Positions 13,964-50,038 of a stretch of DNA of 64,000 bases are shown here, in pieces. Origin of the DNA: a virus; IMG/VR virus record IMGVR_UViG_3300018430_001101, positions 1 through 64,000 of that record; one strand, written 5' to 3'. Below the pieces are notes generated by a model, which searched no databases, had not been told where the DNA came from, and saw only the letters and a list, made by a program, of their open reading frames with translations. Made by a program: the position numbers and the translations under genes. Positions within the stretch are counted from its first letter, which is position 1; each line of letters opens with the position of its first letter.

Positions 13964-14383
13964 TCAGGAAGTCCGGAAGACCTCCTTCGGGGGCTCGCCG
14001 CTCCCGATCCTGAACCGCAGCAGCTTCCCGCTGAGAGTCCTCGCGAACATTTCCGGGTACCGGAACATCCCCCTGAACTTCTCCACAAGATCGTCCGGCA
14101 GGTCCGCAAAATTGTCACGGCTGAGCCCGCAGACAAAGAACGTCCCGCAGACGATGTCGTAATCGCCCAGCATCCGGTTCGGCTGGGAGCCTTTCAGCTT
14201 TGCTTCGTCGTCACAGACCAGCGCCGCGTATTCAGGCCACGGATAGACTGCCTGCAGCGTCCCCCCGACGATTTCCTGCATGGCTCTGAGCGTATGCGGG
14301 ACCACCCGAAGCTCCGGCTCCTTCATCGGCTCGACCACGAGGATGCGGATGGTTTCCACGTTTTCCTTCTTCACTGCGGCCAT
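13964..14383 (-). CDS. DUF3846-like protein
   Basis: MAAVKKENVETIRILVVEPMKEP...LRAMQEIVGGTLQAVYPW...ALVCDDEAKL..PNRML resembles the DUF3846 family pattern (from memory); SD AGGAGGGAGG. Confidence 0.6.
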   Translation of the reverse strand: MAAVKKENVETIRILVVEPMKEPELRVVPHTLRAMQEIVGGTLQAVYPWPEYAALVCDDEAKLKGSQPNRMLGDYDIVCGTFFVCGLSRDNFADLPDDLVEKFRGMFRYPEMFARTLSGKLLRFRIGSGEPPKEVFRTS

Positions 14384-14862
14384 CTCCCGCCTCCCTCCTG
14401 CGGCACCCTGACCGCCGCCCATTCCATCAGCGGGAGCTTCCTTTTGATGAAGCCGCTGTCCTCGAGTGCCTCAATCTGGCCGCACCGGCCGCAGACCATG
14501 ATGTCCAGCCTCCGGGAAAGCGCGTGCGCATACAGCTTCCCCGGCATCTGTACCCCGCACCTGGGGCATCTCGCCCCGTCGTGCTGTGCGGCGGCATACC
14601 GCAGGAGCGTCGCCTTCGCCTCTTCCTCCGTGCGGATCTTGTGGCAGGTATCCGCTCCCCATGCCACGCTTAAGCTGCTCCCCGTGTCCCAGTGGCAGCA
14701 GATGGATCCTGCATCGTCAACCCCCGTGCACACTCCCTGCGTGCCGGGTGGGATGTGTGTATAAGGATCATCCATATGGTCGAGGACGATCCTGCACCCC
14801 TTCGGGTATTCCCTCCGCAGACGTTCCACCGTGCCCCTGTCCGGAAAGTTCATTATGCCCAT
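14371..14862 (-). CDS. DUF4314-like domain protein with C-terminal CxxC...CxxC zinc ribbon
   Basis: RLRREYPKGCRIVLDHMDDPYTHIPPGTQGVCTGVDDAGSICCHWDTGSSLSV resembles DUF4314; CPRCG...CGRCG; SD GGAAGGAGG before ATG 14862. Confidence 0.55.
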   Translation of the reverse strand: MGIMNFPDRGTVERLRREYPKGCRIVLDHMDDPYTHIPPGTQGVCTGVDDAGSICCHWDTGSSLSVAWGADTCHKIRTEEEAKATLLRYAAAQHDGARCPRCGVQMPGKLYAHALSRRLDIMVCGRCGQIEALEDSGFIKRKLPLMEWAAVRVPQEGGGRWPQ

Positions 14863-14910
14863 TTGTGCCTCCTTCCTGCGTTTCCCTCGCCGCCTGTTCA
14901 CCCGGCTCCA

Positions 14911-15408
14911 TCACTGCCCGTCCTTCCGGCTCCTTTTAAGCGCGTCCTCCAGCACATGCATCGGCAGGCCGAGGTCCCTGTAAGCCCTCTCGATGATCCC
15001 GTAGTAGAGCGGGGAAGGCTCCCGGAGGCCGCCTTTGAAGTTCATGACGTATGCCATCCCTTCGCCCTGCAGCTCGTTCCCGTCCTCATCCCACACGGAG
15101 AACCTGACGTCCTCCTTCCGGTAAAGCTCCGGGTAGCCCTCGTAGCGGTCGAGCGCCTTCTCGTCCGATGCGGAGACCGCCCACACAAGGACCGGGGTGC
15201 TCTTCTTCTCATCTTCCCGGATGTTGGCGTACTCCTTAAACTCCAGCTCCCACCCATGGAGGATGCCGGCCCCGACCACCTCCGCGTCAGGGCAGCGCCT
15301 CTCCATCATGCCGGTGTCCAGGTTGCTGCCGTACGCGACGTATACCTTCTTCGTGCCGATCCGTTTCAGGATCTCCTTCGTATTAAGCTTCATGTTCTGC
15401 TTCTTCAT
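14911..15408 (-). CDS. Gamma-glutamyl cyclotransferase-like (GGCT/AIG2 fold) protein 1
   Basis: N-terminal VYVAYGSNL (YGSNL signature) and LDRYEGYPELYRKEDV (catalytic Glu context) of GGCT/AIG2-like family. Confidence 0.7.
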   Translation of the reverse strand: MKKQNMKLNTKEILKRIGTKKVYVAYGSNLDTGMMERRCPDAEVVGAGILHGWELEFKEYANIREDEKKSTPVLVWAVSASDEKALDRYEGYPELYRKEDVRFSVWDEDGNELQGEGMAYVMNFKGGLREPSPLYYGIIERAYRDLGLPMHVLEDALKRSRKDGQ

Positions 15409-15506
15409 TCCCGTTCCTTTCTGCCGCCCAGCGGCCTCCGTTTTTTTTCCACGGTTTTAGTGGTTTTAAGGGTTTTTAGCTGTTGTGGTGTTCCGCGGGC
15501 TCCCAC

Positions 15507-42388: not shown

Positions 42389-43111
42389 CTACCGTTCCTG
42401 GGTTTCATCTGTACCTGCATCATTGGAACCGGGGGAAACGTGAGAACCTGCACACCCTGCATACCCTGCGTATCCCGCATACCCCGGATCGCAGATATCG
42501 GCTGGAACCTGGGTGATGGGAACCGGGTCGAAGGGAGCCGGCGTGGAAAACTCCAGATGCCCGGCTACGGCTTCCTCGATTTCCCGGAGCTTCAGCCCGT
42601 CCGTGATGCGGCCCATGTCGCTCACGAGGGCCTGGGGGCTGATCGTCGTGATCTGCTCCGCCATGGTCAGGCCCGGTTTGAACGTCCTGCCCTCGCCCCG
42701 GCCGGTGAGGTCGGCTTCCGTGACCGGCACGTGCGTCGGGAGGTAGTACCTCTTGTGCTTCGTTGTCATCGGCACCACCGTCGCGACTTCGCGCTTCATG
42801 TTCGCTTCCTCATTGGACAGCACCACGACCGGCCTGCAGCCTTCCTCCACGCACGTCCCGGGGTGGAGCCCCAGCTGCGCGAACCAGACATCGCCCCTGT
42901 GGATCTCCCTTGCCGGGAACCTGCGGATCCTGCAGCGCCCTGCCACAATTGTGTCGGGGAGTGCGGTCGGCACCTCCTGATGTCCGGGATAGAAGGTTGT
43001 GTTCCGATGGCCGCTGTGCGCTTTGCCACTGTGCCTGCCGTGGTTGTTTCTACGGTTGCTGCGCTTCCTGGGATTTCTGTTGATCCTGTTATGATGTTCA
43101 AGTCTTCTCAT
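42389..43111 (-). CDS. MazF/PemK-fold endoribonuclease-like protein with basic N-terminal and Gly/Tyr/Ala-rich C-terminal extensions
   Basis: Core IHRGDVWFAQLG...RPVVVLSNEEANMKREVATVVPMTT...LTMAEQITTI matches PemK/MazF pattern; ATG 43111 after AGGAGAG SD. Confidence 0.65.
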   Translation of the reverse strand: MRRLEHHNRINRNPRKRSNRRNNHGRHSGKAHSGHRNTTFYPGHQEVPTALPDTIVAGRCRIRRFPAREIHRGDVWFAQLGLHPGTCVEEGCRPVVVLSNEEANMKREVATVVPMTTKHKRYYLPTHVPVTEADLTGRGEGRTFKPGLTMAEQITTISPQALVSDMGRITDGLKLREIEEAVAGHLEFSTPAPFDPVPITQVPADICDPGYAGYAGYAGCAGSHVSPGSNDAGTDETQER

Positions 43112-43442
43112 CTTCAATCTCTCCTGTGCATATCTGCTGCTCTGTATCCTCCTGCCCCGGCGTCTCAGCTCCTGTCCATCCCGGCATTCCCCCATCCACT
43201 TCACCAGCGGAAGTTAAAGAGGACGCCAGGGCATAAAAAATGCCGGGAGCGGCTTTGGCACCGCCCTCGGCAAATGGAAAAGGAGACTAAGCTATGGACT
43301 TCATCTTTGTGCGTTCCTGCGGAAGCTTTCGTTTGTGTTTCTGTGTTTGTCTTCCGCTTTCGCGCATTGTAATAATAGCACATTTTTTACTACGCTTTTT
43401 GAGCCGAAAAGTATCATCGAAACTGCCAAAAAGTATCATTTC

Positions 43443-44702: not shown

Positions 44703-46211
44703 TCACCTCAGCCTCGCCCTGACCGCGGCGATCAGCTTCTCCTGCGTCACGTCCTTGTTTGACAGCGCCGCCAGCACGTCCTCGTCCACCGTATCCTTCG
44801 TGATGATATGGTGGACAGTTACGACCTCGCGCTGCCCCTGCCGCCAGAGCCTGGCATTCGTCTGCTGGTACAGTTCGAGAGACCAGGTAAGACCGAACCA
44901 GATCAGGATGTGCCCGCCGTCCTGGATGTTCAGTCCGTGGCCGGCCGATGCCGGATGTATCAGGGCGATTGGTATGGATCCTCTGTTCCAGTCCTGGATG
45001 TCCTGCGACTCTTTCAAGTCTCTCACTTCCGCCTCGCCGCCGCCAGTGGTTCTGGCAGATCCACTGCCTCCCGTGGTTCTGGCAGATACCGCAGAACTGG
45101 ATCCGACAGACACAGCGTCTCCCGCAGAAACGGCGGAAACGGAAGACCCTGGTACGCAGTACCCGAGGCTCGCCAGCCGTTCGAGGATCCGCATCCTGTC
45201 GTGTTTGAACCAGTATGCGATAAGCACTGGCTGGCCGTTCGCGGCTTCGATAAGATCCTCCAGCATGTCCAGCTTCCGGTCATGGATAAGGCGAGGATTC
45301 TTATTCTCGTCATAGACCGCGCCGTTCGCCATCTGCAGGAGCTTGTTGGAAAGGGATGCCGCGTTCGCCGCGTCGATGTCCTCGTCCTCCAAAGGGATGA
45401 TCAGGTCATCCCTCAGCTGCTCATACAGTTTCTTCTCCTTCTCATCCATGGAAACGGGATGGCTCGCGTAGACGATGTCCGGCATGTGGAGGTAATCCAG
45501 TGCCTTCATCGAGATCGTGATGTCGGAAATGCGGTTATAGATCTGCTCCTCCGCGCCCGGCTTCGGCCTGTACTGGAACACAACCCCCGTCTGCGGGTTC
45601 AGGGAGGCCGCAGTGAAGTACGCCTCCCTGTATCGCCCGATGAACTTGCCCAGCCTCTCTCCGCCGTCGAGGATCCCGATCTCCGCCCACAGGTCCATCA
45701 GCCCGTTGGATGCCGGGGTCCCCGTGAGCCCTACCCAGCGCCGCACGAACGGGCGCACCTTCCGCAGCCACCTGAACCTTTGGCTCTGGTGGTTCTTGAA
45801 GGACGACAGCTCGTCGATCACCACCATGTCGAAAGGCCACCTCATGCCGTTCGACTCGTAATAGTTCACGAGCCACTTCACGTTCTCACGGTTGATCACG
45901 TAGATAAGCGCGCCGTGGTTTACTGCCGCCACCCGCTGCTTCGTATCGCCCACGATGACCGAGATGTCGAGTTCATGCAGGTGATCCCACTTAAGGACCT
46001 CTGCGGGCCATGTGTCCCGGGCCACCCGGAGCGGCGCGATAACCAGGGCTTTTGAAACTTCGAGATCGTCCAGCATCAGGTCGCGCAGTGCGGTCAAGCT
46101 AATAATTGTCTTTCCTCAGCCGAGGCCCATGTCAAGAAACAGGGCGGACACTGGATGCGACTTTATGTAGTCAATGCAGTGCCGCTGATAATCATGCGGC
46201 ATGAACTTCAC
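44703..46211 (-). CDS. SNF2-family helicase; reading frame contains an in-frame TGA (46116-46118) inside the P-loop (DMGLG-TGA-GKTIISL)
   Basis: GTG start at 46211 after AAGGAGGTG; N-terminus MKFMPHDYQ (SNF2 Q-motif); motifs Ia LVIAPLRVARDTW, II VIDELSSF, III LTGTPASN. Confidence 0.7.
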
Positions 46212-46291
46212 CGGGCATCACCTCCTTTCGTTACTTTTACTCATTCTGTTCTCCATCACTTCCCGCCATCAAACGACACCACGGTGATGCA

Positions 46292-48605: not shown

Positions 48606-48944
48606 CTATCCCCGCCCCTGCAGCTTCTTCTCCTGTTTCCTCCTGAGCTTTTTGATCCGCTCCCTGGCCTTCTCCTTCTCAACCCTGACCGTGTTCTCCG
48701 TGACCGCCCGGATGAGGCTGTCCGGGGCGATGTCCGTTAACGCCTCATACCAGTCAGAATAGAAAAAGTCCTCCAGTTTCTCTTTCTCCCAGGAGAGGTG
48801 CCTCCTCGCAGTGCGGGAGGAGGCGTGGAGCATCTTCCTGATGACATCGGAGTAGTCTTCAGCCGCCAGCTGGATGACCGCGCCCGCCAGGAGCAGGTAT
48901 CCCTCGTCTCCGATCTCCGAGAGACGGTTCTGCTCAACTGTCAT
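48606..48944 (-). CDS. Hypothetical protein
   Basis: ORF 48606..49007 with internal start MTVEQNRL. Confidence 0.35.
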   Translation of the reverse strand: MTVEQNRLSEIGDEGYLLLAGAVIQLAAEDYSDVIRKMLHASSRTARRHLSWEKEKLEDFFYSDWYEALTDIAPDSLIRAVTENTVRVEKEKARERIKKLRRKQEKKLQGRG

Positions 48945-49491
48945 CAATACCTCCGTTCGCGTCTTCACCATCCGGCTCGTCCCATTCATCCGTCTTGTCC
49001 CATTCATCTGATTCTCCAGAGATTCCCGGAACGTTTGTACAGATCCTGCCGTTCCTGATCTCCTGCTCTATGTAGGCGAGTTCCTGAAGCTCCTCGATAT
49101 CGCCACTGTGGGCATCAAAAAAGGAATCCTCCGCCTTCCCGGCATCCAGGACTCCTACCTGCTCCAGCGCCGGCCTGTACTTCCTGATCAGGTCGAACCG
49201 TTCCCTATTTACCACCCTCTCCAAAGCATCGATGCGCCCCTTCTCCACATCGGCCTTCTTCCTGTAGAACGGACACGGCCGCGTATAGCCGTATCCGTCC
49301 TCCGCAGGTTCCAGCGCATCGCACAAGCCTCCGGTATTTGCAAAGCATGCGGCCGCCTTACACTTCCGCTGTTCCTTTACTTTCCTTCCCACATCTTTTG
49401 TCCTCCTCGTATGTTGTCCTCTGCCTCCATCTCTGCTGCCTCTGTCGCTTCCACCGCTTTCCCGCACCACACTGTGGAAAACTCCTGACAC
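48934..49491 (-). CDS. Hypothetical Cys-containing protein
   Basis: 185-aa ORF. Confidence 0.35.
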   Translation of the reverse strand: MSGVFHSVVRESGGSDRGSRDGGRGQHTRRTKDVGRKVKEQRKCKAAACFANTGGLCDALEPAEDGYGYTRPCPFYRKKADVEKGRIDALERVVNRERFDLIRKYRPALEQVGVLDAGKAEDSFFDAHSGDIEELQELAYIEQEIRNGRICTNVPGISGESDEWDKTDEWDEPDGEDANGGIDDS

Positions 49492-49551
49492 GCTGTCACA
49501 GCAAGTCCCGCCACAGAGTATGGTGAGAAGAGCGGAGTGCGGAGAGCGTGA

Positions 49552-49905
49552 TCACAGCACATCGTTGCACATCTTCCAGATGCCCTTGCAAGCCTCAAGT
49601 AGCTTCTTCCGGTCCAGCCTGGACGCGGACAGGAGGTTCTCCATCGCCTCCGCTTCCTCCCGGATGTCGCAAAGCAGCCTCCTCTGGTCGTCCTGCCCTT
49701 CTTCCAGCGCCCTCTTGTAATCGTCCCTGTCTTCCTCAAGCTCCTCAATGGCTTCCTCAGCAGTCCGCTGCCAGTAGATCGCATAGTCACCAAATTCATC
49801 CCCGATGTAGTCCCTGACAAGACCAACCAGGTCGCCGAACTCCGTCACAAGGTGTTTCGTGCCGTCCCACGCTTCGAGATACTGGATATCATCCATCTGC
49901 ATCAC
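49552..49905 (-). CDS. Hypothetical acidic protein
   Basis: 117-aa ORF. Confidence 0.4.
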   Translation of the reverse strand: MMQMDDIQYLEAWDGTKHLVTEFGDLVGLVRDYIGDEFGDYAIYWQRTAEEAIEELEEDRDDYKRALEEGQDDQRRLLCDIREEAEAMENLLSASRLDRKKLLEACKGIWKMCNDVL

Positions 49906-50038
49906 CTCCTGTTTTCTCCGCTGCTATACTACTGTGCTCCTCTGCCGAGCATCAACTCCGGCACTGTCATCACTGCTGTCGTCCGTCCCGGCGCATAAAT
50001 ATACGCCTTTTATGCATATGCACAGCCACGCCGGCACC

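Follow-up and report, generated by a model that had tools for sequence, protein, structure and literature searches.

A SNF2-type helicase gene in the viral record IMGVR_UViG_3300018430_001101 carries a six-nucleotide (nt) insertion, TGAGGA, inside its Walker A motif (motif I, the P-loop), where an in-frame TGA stands between two glycine codons. The window, by which we mean the whole stretch of 64,000 nt that was analyzed (positions 1 to 64,000 of the record), holds one of many such alleles: inserts at this site recur across phages, and the open reading frame (ORF) parts on both sides are intact and conserved. As judged from these sequences, the helicase is probably expressed by short-range translational bypassing over the insertion, whether compensatory or programmed, in which the peptidyl-tRNA would leave the first glycine codon and re-pair with the second.

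A helicase family interrupted in motif I

On the minus strand, a GTG start codon (46211-46209) opens 31 sense codons, MKFMPHDYQRHCIDYIKSHPVSALFLDMGLG, before a TGA (46118-46116) interrupts the frame. The same frame resumes as GKTIISLTALRDLML... and runs for 469 codons to a terminal TGA (44705-44703) ( Table 1 ). A sequence-only reading of this DNA had described the GTG start with a strong Shine-Dalgarno (SD) sequence, the in-frame TGA and the frame open to 44703, and reading the sequence confirms all three; the same SD and start arrangement is found in locus L001 and in Bacillus phage Carmen17. The host gene is a SNF2 helicase of superfamily 2 (SF2), an identity that the same reading had proposed and that Pfam bears out. 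The ORF matches SNF2-rel_dom (E = 1.4e-15; 57.6 bits against a cut-off of 24.9), exceeds the DEAD and ResIII cut-offs as well, and contains the GxGKT of motif I, while the Helicase_C lobe scores 21.6 bits, slightly below its cut-off of 23.5. Homologues carry SNF2/DEAD helicase annotations.

Canonical (uninterrupted) relatives, L002-L007 and others, are intact and read FLDMGLGKT at this point, so the stop does fall inside the Walker A loop, as had been claimed. The window reads GGC-TGA-GGA-AAG-ACA and is two codons longer. These two extra codons (TGA GGA, 46118-46113) identify an insertion rather than a nonsense substitution, and the earlier statement that only the stop codon is involved is misleading. 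A comparison of orthologues for the residue at the TGA, which had been suggested as a check, finds that canonical homologues have no residue there at all. The frame is kept across the insert, in agreement with the claim that no frameshift occurs in the window. The closest GenBank relatives are gut phages of the 'Ca. Heliusvirales' (~66% nucleotide identity). In Ruminococcus phage NatCom_38182 the site reads GGT TGA AAA GGC AAA ACA, three codons longer than canonical, and has been annotated as a 31-codon mini coding sequence (CDS) and a longer CDS. The window and NatCom_38182 are alike in having one Gly codon ahead of the stop and another ahead of Lys-Thr.

Ten contigs of the same phage were found in ENA, JGI and Logan samples via the neighboring 243-aa protein, and nine of them span the site. 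GGC TGA GGA is present in all nine of these independent assemblies (9/9), with 0 mismatches over 490-1600 nt. A scan of the metagenome_contigs collection with the exact 42-nt pattern of the site gave 0 matches, though contigs from JGI, ENA and Logan samples do contain the identical sequence; this collection is therefore not exhaustive, and a negative scan of it proves no absence. The insertion is real and compatible with viability, being present in the nine assemblies, in plaque-purified Carmen17 and in the cultured phage PBC1. The window helicase also contains a low-complexity, Ser/Ala/Gly/Thr-rich insertion of ~43 aa (45025-45155, minus strand; PGSSVSAVSAGDAVSVGSSSAVSARTTGGSGSARTTGGGEAEV, with SARTTGG repeated), which is absent from relatives (469 versus ~425 codons after the P-loop) and present in 9/9 assemblies of the window phage.

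Interrupted alleles are widespread. An unbiased homology scan of IMG/VR recovered 44 loci, nine of them interrupted, all at exactly the codon of the window. A DNA pattern for FLDMGLG followed by T-R-R matches at least 119 IMG/VR contigs, where about 7 would be expected by chance (a rough estimate), and at least 120 stretches in GTDB genomes. The genuine helicase matches in genomes all belong to the Bacillota (Clostridia, Streptococcus, Negativicutes, Tissierellia and Bacilli), and they include cultured isolates and one complete chromosome. De-duplication leaves 155 distinct interrupted alleles, whose inserts of 1-12 nt fall into 29 different sequences. The number of alleles at each insert length is 3 (1 nt), 36 (4 nt), 58 (5 nt), 43 (6 nt), 7 (7 nt), 1 (8 nt), 1 (9 nt), 3 (10 nt), 2 (11 nt) and 1 (12 nt), such that 29% (45/155) are multiples of 3 and 71% break the frame. 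The first triplet of the insert is TAG in 72 alleles, TGA in 58, TAA in 23 and TGG in 2, a stop in 153/155. Directly before AAR-ACN there is a GGN triplet in 108 alleles and AGC, GAC, CGC or AGT, which match GGY at two of three positions, in the other 47. The TGAGGA class, to which the window belongs, comprises 11 distinct alleles. Every genuine interrupted allele has AAR followed by ACN, AGY or TCN within 12 nt of the stop and a long ORF in that frame, and the upstream open segment is 33 codons long in nearly all.

The interruption is found in isolated phages as well. Plaque-purified Bacillus phage Carmen17, sequenced at >60x, reads GGT TGA CGT A GGC AAA ACT, and further GenBank cases are Erysipelothrix phage phi1605 and Streptococcus prophage Javan422, whose annotated helicase CDS starts only after the interruption. 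Two metagenome-assembled genomes (MAGs) contain unusual members. Locus L203 (JAHKLX010000061.1), labelled as a Candidatus Micrarchaeota MAG, carries a TAGGT-class helicase whose first 25 residues after the P-loop are identical to those of the L107 and L142 alleles, and it is probably a mis-binned Bacillota-phage contig. Locus L232, from an uncultured Peptoniphilaceae MAG (CAYSPO010000032.1), has a TAGGA-type interruption followed by a frame open for 1829 codons, which suggests that its helicase is fused to a very large downstream protein or that a stop is missing.

The inserts have changed repeatedly. On a neighbor-joining tree of 197 unique helicases, parsimony requires at least 22 changes between the canonical and interrupted states (~60 with shuffled labels) and at least 50 changes of insert length. 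Interrupted and canonical alleles can be as similar as 95% identity in protein. Of the 30 helicases nearest to that of the window, 4 are canonical and the other 26 are interrupted by 11 different inserts; alleles close to that of the window change freely between in-frame and out-of-frame inserts.

Despite the interruption, these genes are maintained. The downstream ORF has at least 380 codons in the Lys-Thr frame in 132/138 interrupted alleles whose gene end lies within the locus, and under a stricter criterion of room for the gene, the intact share is 125/130 for interrupted against 77/79 for canonical alleles (p = 0.71). Between interrupted alleles that retain the same insert, the median ratio of nonsynonymous to synonymous substitution rates (dN/dS) of the downstream ORF is 0.049, with dS up to ~1. 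The 31 upstream codons are also under purifying selection, nonsynonymous change (pN) being much lower than synonymous change (pS). Some clades are uniformly interrupted yet conserved, for example cluster 50 (23/23 alleles). Both ORF parts thus appear functional and, with motif I split between them, would have to be joined.

A proposed Gly-to-Gly stop-hop and its alternatives

In the hop that we propose, the ribosome would translate 31 codons and pause with peptidyl-tRNA-Gly on GGC (46121-46119) in the P site and UGA in the A site. A fraction of ribosomes would terminate at the UGA. On the remaining ribosomes the peptidyl-tRNA would unpair, the mRNA would slide by 6 nt, and the anticodon would re-pair with GGA (46115-46113). 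Decoding would restart at AAG ACA, nine nucleotides would yield one glycine, and the predicted product, ...FLDMGLGKTIISL... across the junction, would contain the canonical motif I DMGLGKT. The take-off and landing codons of the window (GGC and GGA) both specify Gly, as expected if they pair with the same anticodon, and the take-off codon is followed directly by a slow-to-decode one, UGA. It is known that a ribosome stalled at UGA can hop to a codon that matches the anticodon in its P site (PMC6815119). Stop-hops between matched codons on either side of a stop have been described for synthetic constructs, and short natural counterparts of the gene 60 bypass have 'long been presumed' (PMC5009743). 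The sequence-only reading had rightly counted recoding among the candidates, and a short hop between matched codons was absent from its list. A single re-pairing mechanism would fit every insert class and would always restore DMGLGKT; this constancy of the predicted hop product is indirect evidence that the gap is absent from the protein.

Landing codons provide a sharper view of the mechanism. Non-GGN landing triplets end in C rather than T by 44:1, whereas synonymous AGY/GAY codons in the same genes end in C in 53% of cases (p = 1.5e-11, a value that ignores phylogeny). Such a bias is predicted by anticodon re-pairing and not by frameshifting followed by decoding. A simple +1 shift would be blocked in loci L239 (GGT TGA C TGA GGC) and L206 (GGT TGA C TAA GGC), where the +1 frame, like the 0 frame, contains a stop. 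In the +1 'T' class the move would be from the GGG of GGG-TAA-G to GGT.

A second class of alleles is interrupted one codon earlier, between matched Leu codons. It includes the cultured phages PBC1 (GGT CTT TAG CTA GGG AAG ACA) and S4-5 (GGA CTT TAA ATC CTT GGC AAA ACA), and a scan of IMG/VR for Leu-stop-Leu-Gly-Lys returned 13 contigs, all of them (13/13) with true helicases, the complete genes having ORFs of 423-438 codons. Each of the 15 Leu-site alleles has its stop directly after the take-off codon. In the 13 contigs, CTN serves for take-off and landing in 26/26 cases, while only 52% of the Leu codons of the same genes are CTN. The C bias, the PBC1 and S4-5 Leu interruptions and the CTN-only rule favor anticodon re-pairing. 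Scans at other codons gave 0 matches for Lys-stop-Lys at the neighboring Lys codon and one match for Met-stop-Met. The latter, L440 (4520-4548; IMG/VR 2700989131_000001), belongs to a different helicase subfamily and reads GAT ATG TGA ATG GGT TTA GGA AAA ACT, and its Met-stop-Met before GLGKT is ambiguous, since an ATG-to-ATG hop and plain termination with re-initiation are both workable.

Interrupted alleles show synonymous constraint immediately 5′ of the stop: 139/146 have GGC for the first Gly of GLG (Gly-1), 126/146 have TTR for Leu and 124/146 use GGT as the take-off codon. Canonical alleles have mixed codons at these three positions, with matched G+C content at third codon positions (0.59 vs 0.60), and they encode the same peptide upstream of this point. 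Past the landing site, the Lys and Thr codons are unconstrained in the interrupted and canonical sets alike. The window carries a minority form, GGC CTC GGC, common to L161, L240 and others. The TTR and GGT preferences can be explained by weak E-site pairing and a wobble take-off, or as a relic of tandem duplication. The third base of Gly-1 (position -7 from the stop, 46125 in the window) is C in 95% of interrupted alleles and mixed in canonical ones, and this use of GGC is explained by neither idea. A tandem-duplication origin fits the TTAGG|TTAGG repeat of the TAGGA class (GGC[TTAGG][TTAGG]AAAAC) and the TTR and GGT preferences; it fails on the 95% GGC and on the TAGC and TGAC inserts, and tandem duplication is therefore only a partial account of origin. 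DNA-level reversion or phase variation was rejected as a main route because most inserts are not tandem repeats.

Several observations weigh against bypassing. Per-site information reveals no synonymous conservation besides these 9 nt within 60 nt on either side, and no family-wide long-range stimulatory structure or SD-like element; nor does the window region form a significant fold that might serve as a stimulatory stem-loop (z = 0.25). Without a stem-loop or an extended conserved element the yield of the hop may be low, and unstimulated short hops in synthetic constructs have been described as low-level. The window allele itself is in frame and has UGA, the leakiest stop, and its take-off GGC and landing GGA are not the same at the wobble position; no stop blocks the -1 route for the +5 and +8 inserts. 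The TGGC class (loci L081 and L097 of IMG/VR; GGT TGG C AAG) would place a Trp codon rather than a stop in the A site, and it fits none of the explanations so far. Its downstream ORF is conserved (dN/dS 0.054 at dS 0.42), and L081 has an upstream HNH gene. Short-patch gene conversion of inserts into diverged genes could weaken the dN/dS argument, as part of the dS would then predate the insert; the clades that are interrupted throughout are a counterpoint to this caveat. Phylogeny is taken into account only in the clade-level HNH test described below, and the other statistics ignore kinship. For the window and for the whole family alike, we infer the hop and its efficiency from comparative sequence.

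Alternatives to bypassing differ mainly in how they treat the frame. Readthrough of the UGA by a near-cognate tRNA, such as tRNA-Trp, would add two residues to the P-loop (DMGLG-X-GKT) and keep the GxGKT core; UGA is the leakiest bacterial stop, and the inserts of the window and of 45/155 related alleles are in frame. This in-frame share is about what chance would give, which argues that frame is not under selection and that readthrough is not the general mechanism. Relatives of the window do not conserve the frame but switch between in-frame and out-of-frame inserts, though the window itself is in frame. TAA, the tightest stop, occurs in 16 of the 45 in-frame inserts, in-frame inserts of 9 and 12 nt would put X-K-G, X-P-G or X-R-P-G into the P-loop, and the region lacks a stimulating structure. 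Programmed readthrough, as listed by the sequence-only reading, is accordingly untenable for the family and possible for the window allele; we regard it as unlikely overall. A mixture of programmed frameshifts at a 'shifty stop' (+1 for inserts of +1/+4/+7/+10, -1 for +5/+8/+11) combined with readthrough, giving 1-4 extra P-loop residues, draws on the fact that a stop in the A site stimulates frameshifting, as in prfB (PMC6815119). A -1 slip onto GGG is conceivable in alleles with TTG-GGT, and enumeration of the allele sequences finds the -1 route of the +5 class free of blocking stops. Yet three mechanisms would be needed at one site, ~47 alleles would produce P-loops without the invariant Gly of GKT (GLG-S-KT, GLG-D-KT), and the 44:1 C bias of the AGC and GAC landing triplets and the CTN-only Leu rule would go unexplained. 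There is also no X_XXY_YYZ heptamer, and the +1 route is stop-blocked in L206 and L239. A mixture of this kind seems somewhat less likely than readthrough.

Other alternatives dispense with a joined product or with a functional one. The helicase of the window phage may be inactivated, as a pseudogene or a dispensable gene that nothing reads through: such genes count as truncated or split for annotation pipelines and for authors, some phages may tolerate the loss of the helicase, and 5/130 interrupted alleles have secondary disruptions. It is difficult to reconcile inactivation with 469 open codons after the stop, with a dN/dS of ~0.05 on both halves in relatives that retain the insert to dS ~1, with intactness equal to that of canonical alleles, with the constant adjacency of K-T to a Gly-like triplet or with whole clades that are interrupted yet conserved, and we consider it improbable. 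Termination at the UGA followed by re-initiation would give two polypeptides, a 31-aa peptide and an N-terminally truncated helicase, possibly cooperating. SD-like AGGA or GAGG sequences are frequent in the inserts, and the ATG-TGA-ATG of L440 would re-initiate easily. The shorter protein, however, would lack the G or K of the P-loop, no conserved start follows the insert (third positions after K-T hold ~0 bits, and a Val GTG is not conserved), the TAGC and TGAC inserts have no SD-like sequence, and the N-terminal 31 codons are under selection; this arrangement is very improbable. Two candidates of the earlier reading, a sequencing error (or one of assembly) and a nonsense mutation (very recent and private), have their prior plausibility alone in their favor and are contradicted by the nine identical assemblies, by the 6-nt length of the insertion, by homologous inserts in at least 155 other alleles and by the persistence of interrupted alleles to dS ~1 at dN/dS ~0.05. 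We give them almost no weight. Even less can be given to selenocysteine, for which the in-frame UGA in a gene of an anaerobe-associated phage might speak. The hairpin resembling a selenocysteine insertion sequence (SECIS) that was to be looked for did not emerge, since the window region has no significant fold and an Rfam search at E<=10 returned only noise, with no SECIS or other RNA element. ARAGORN detected no tRNA genes in the window, so neither a suppressor tRNA nor a tRNA-Sec is encoded there; relatives have TAG, TAA or frame-breaking inserts at the same place, and canonical homologues lack the residue. A change of genetic code was rejected, as TGA terminates 35/44 long minus-strand ORFs of the window, the helicase gene included, and the earlier view that TGA is a genuine stop and code 4 or 25 unlikely therefore stands.

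Endonuclease association and gene neighborhood

Between its nuclease and helicase genes, Carmen17 has an HNH_3 endonuclease gene (Pfam E = 5.7e-13), which ends at the helicase start. An HNH_3 homologue sits at this position in 15/69 of the interrupted alleles and 0/48 of the canonical ones (p = 3e-4), and the interrupted alleles that have one represent 8 insert classes and at least 6 lineages of the helicase. At the level of clades, HNH_3 abuts the helicase start in 8/23 interrupted and 0/25 canonical clades (p = 0.0013). Within clades the HNH gene is patchy and the insert stays. In the Carmen17/PBC1 group, Carmen17 and S4-5 have the HNH gene and are interrupted, and Wes44 (95% similar to Carmen17), BCE1, S4-4, LY1 and LY5 lack it and are canonical; PBC1 is interrupted and lacks it.

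A precedent for an insert that protects against an endonuclease exists in phage T4, where the 50-nt insert of gene 60 keeps MobA from cutting its own genome; the element has been acquired repeatedly, and some lineages have lost the endonuclease and kept the bypass (bioRxiv 10.1101/2022.08.31.505936). By analogy, the helicase inserts could be 'immunity indels' that destroy the target of an HNH homing endonuclease in the conserved DNA of the P-loop, a hop being what makes an insertion there tolerable. We treat this as an open possibility, somewhat short of even. The insert of the window would then be a 'solo' insert without its endonuclease. Weighing against such an origin, the association with HNH genes is correlative, it concerns ~1/3 of the interrupted clades, and no HNH gene lies between the 46292-47023 gene and the helicase in the window. 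A lower helicase dosage is an alternative or additional benefit that the insert could bring.

Inteins at this site were considered and rejected: the top 120 homologues are all ~456-472 aa long with no intein domains, and a scan for GLGK-Cys gave one match, a GKC variant of the P-loop. This protein (L418:1420-1446; IMG/VR 3300033072_000170) is full-length, reads GLGKC instead of GLGKT and has a long basic insertion after motif Ia that is not an intein.

Table 1. Sequence features of the helicase locus in the window.
Feature	Position	Strand	Basis or remark
SD sequence AAGGAGGTG of the helicase gene	46219..46227	minus	read directly; GGAGG 9 nt upstream of the GTG start
ORF segment 1: GTG and 30 codons, ending ...FLDMGLG (N-terminal half of motif I)	46119..46211	minus	sequence
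5′ context GGC CTC GGC (Gly-Leu-Gly); the final GGC (46121-46119) is the proposed take-off codon	46119..46127	minus	
In-frame TGA; would be in the A site once the take-off Gly codon occupies the P site	46116..46118	minus	
Insertion of 6 nt, TGAGGA, compared with canonical GGN-AAR-ACN; proposed landing codon GGA (46115-46113)	46113..46118	minus	
Proposed resume codons AAG ACA (Lys-Thr of the GKT P-loop)	46107..46112	minus	
ORF segment 2: remainder of the SNF2-type helicase, 469 codons and TGA	44703..46112	minus	Pfam
Upstream neighbor gene, 243 aa	46292..47023	minus	VRR-NUC-like by eye at the N-terminus (PDRLVLF...VELK); no Pfam match

The product of the upstream neighbor gene has an extension of ~130 aa that is acidic and Gly-rich with a Cys/His-rich tail, typical homologues being ~95 aa long. 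Elsewhere in the window, an ORF at 42389-43204 (minus strand) encodes a PemK/MazF-like toxin domain (Pfam E = 4.7e-15; residues 103-213) preceded by a long basic N-terminal extension, and it sits in the phage replication module between primase/D5-like and sigma70_r4-like genes. Two further pairs of adjacent minus-strand ORFs share a frame with one TGA between them (49552-49923|48934-49551 and 14911-15456|14371-14910). These pairs, at 48934-49923 and 14371-15456, are probably merely neighboring genes.

Implications and comparison with known systems

On the widest view, phages of the Bacillota may harbor a large natural family of P-loop stop-hops over 1-12 nt, at a Gly or a Leu codon, whose inserts are fast-evolving immunity indels against HNH endonucleases. 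This composite proposal is tentative, more so than the immunity-indel origin taken by itself. If it is true, these would be the first natural in-frame stop-hops and the second natural bypass system in phages, and they would extend the logic of T4 gene 60 and MobA to a different gene, endonuclease and host phylum. Should the HNH link hold, hiding the target site in a bypassed insert would be a recurrent strategy of phages against homing endonucleases. Almost all cases of efficient natural bypassing have so far come from T4 gene 60 with its homologues and from a single yeast mitochondrion. With more than 150 natural variants in gap length, stop, take-off codon and landing codon, the helicase locus offers a ready mutational series for signal-poor hopping, and some of the variants are found in cultured phages (PBC1, Carmen17 and S4-5) with tractable Bacillus hosts.

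There are also consequences for annotation. In PV036450, MG784342, MF172979 and JQ619704 (loci L001, L287, L419 and L421) the helicase is either split into a 31-codon 'hypothetical protein' and a shorter helicase or given a CDS that begins internally, and the P-loop is consequently absent from the deposited proteins. A marker gene of the widespread gut 'Heliusvirales' is thus mis-annotated in ~1/5 of genomes. The paper on the Heliusvirales lists the helicase as a marker gene and makes no mention of a stop, of recoding or of HNH. Our literature searches found no description of a stop-hop at the helicase P-loop locus, and according to a 2016 review no natural in-frame stop-hop was known (PMC5009743).

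The closest experimental parallels are the synthetic stop-hops studied in Escherichia coli by Weiss, Atkins, Gesteland and co-workers (PMC5009743). Like these, the helicase sites place matched codons on either side of a stop (GGC UGA GGA in the window, CUU UAG CUA in PBC1) and have no elaborate stimulators. Unlike these engineered, low-level constructs, the helicase arrangement is natural, conserved and recurrent. The +1 frameshift of prfB, the gene for release factor 2 (RF2), also involves re-pairing of a P-site tRNA next to a stop in the A site, and the +1 'T' class is formally the same event. In prfB, however, the +1 re-pairing is overlapping, is assisted by an SD-like element 3 nt upstream and is autoregulatory, whereas most helicase alleles would need non-overlapping moves of 4-12 nt.

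Disruptive indels in viral genes that are offset by recoding have been termed 'savior indel plus compensatory recoding', for example in the G-run indels of herpesvirus thymidine kinase (PMC5009743). There as here, a disruptive indel that benefits the virus would be tolerated because low-level recoding supplies enough protein. The herpesvirus case differs in being a drug-selected frameshift at a homopolymer, with no hop between matched codons and no link to an endonuclease. In the terminase gene of Streptomyces phage phiHau3, a bypass of 10-nt inserts triggered by UUA has been proposed, and mass spectrometry in E. coli supports bypass over frameshifting (PMC10732093). The helicase family shares with phiHau3 the short, frame-breaking inserts in an essential phage ATPase gene and the proposed bypass from a slow-to-decode codon in the A site. 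It differs in its trigger, which in phiHau3 is the rare sense codon UUA, tied to the bldA tRNA of the host, rather than a stop; the phiHau3 inserts are confined to a handful of phages and to another gene and site, and stem-loop and SD-like stimulators have been proposed for them, unlike in the helicase family.

The mitochondrion of the yeast Magnusiomyces capitatus contains 'byps', inserts of 27-55 nt with hairpins that are found at many sites in many genes and are thought to be mobile. Here too, numerous short non-coding inserts in coding sequence are bypassed between matched take-off and landing codons, but the helicase inserts are all located at one hotspot in one motif of one gene.

T4 gene 60 with MobA provides the most extensive comparison. 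In both systems a stop directly follows a Gly take-off codon, and one peptidyl-tRNA reads, or would read, the landing codon as well; the insert interrupts a conserved region of a phage gene for a DNA-metabolism ATPase and has been acquired independently several times; and the adjacent HNH gene of some lineages has been lost from others that keep the insert. The differences are equally clear. The gap is 1-12 nt (6 in the window) instead of 50 nt, and in place of one conserved cassette the helicase family has inserts that vary greatly. It shows no identifiable stem-loop at the take-off site, no nascent-peptide signal and no mini-SD. The helicase gene is not split by an endonuclease ORF, and its endonuclease, where present, is of the HNH_3 type and located upstream of the whole gene. 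Finally, the inserts have no sequence homology to the gene 60 cassette, and the hosts are Bacillota rather than Gammaproteobacteria. The window feature stands outside the gene 60 cassette family, and the resemblance between the two is functional, at the level of the family.

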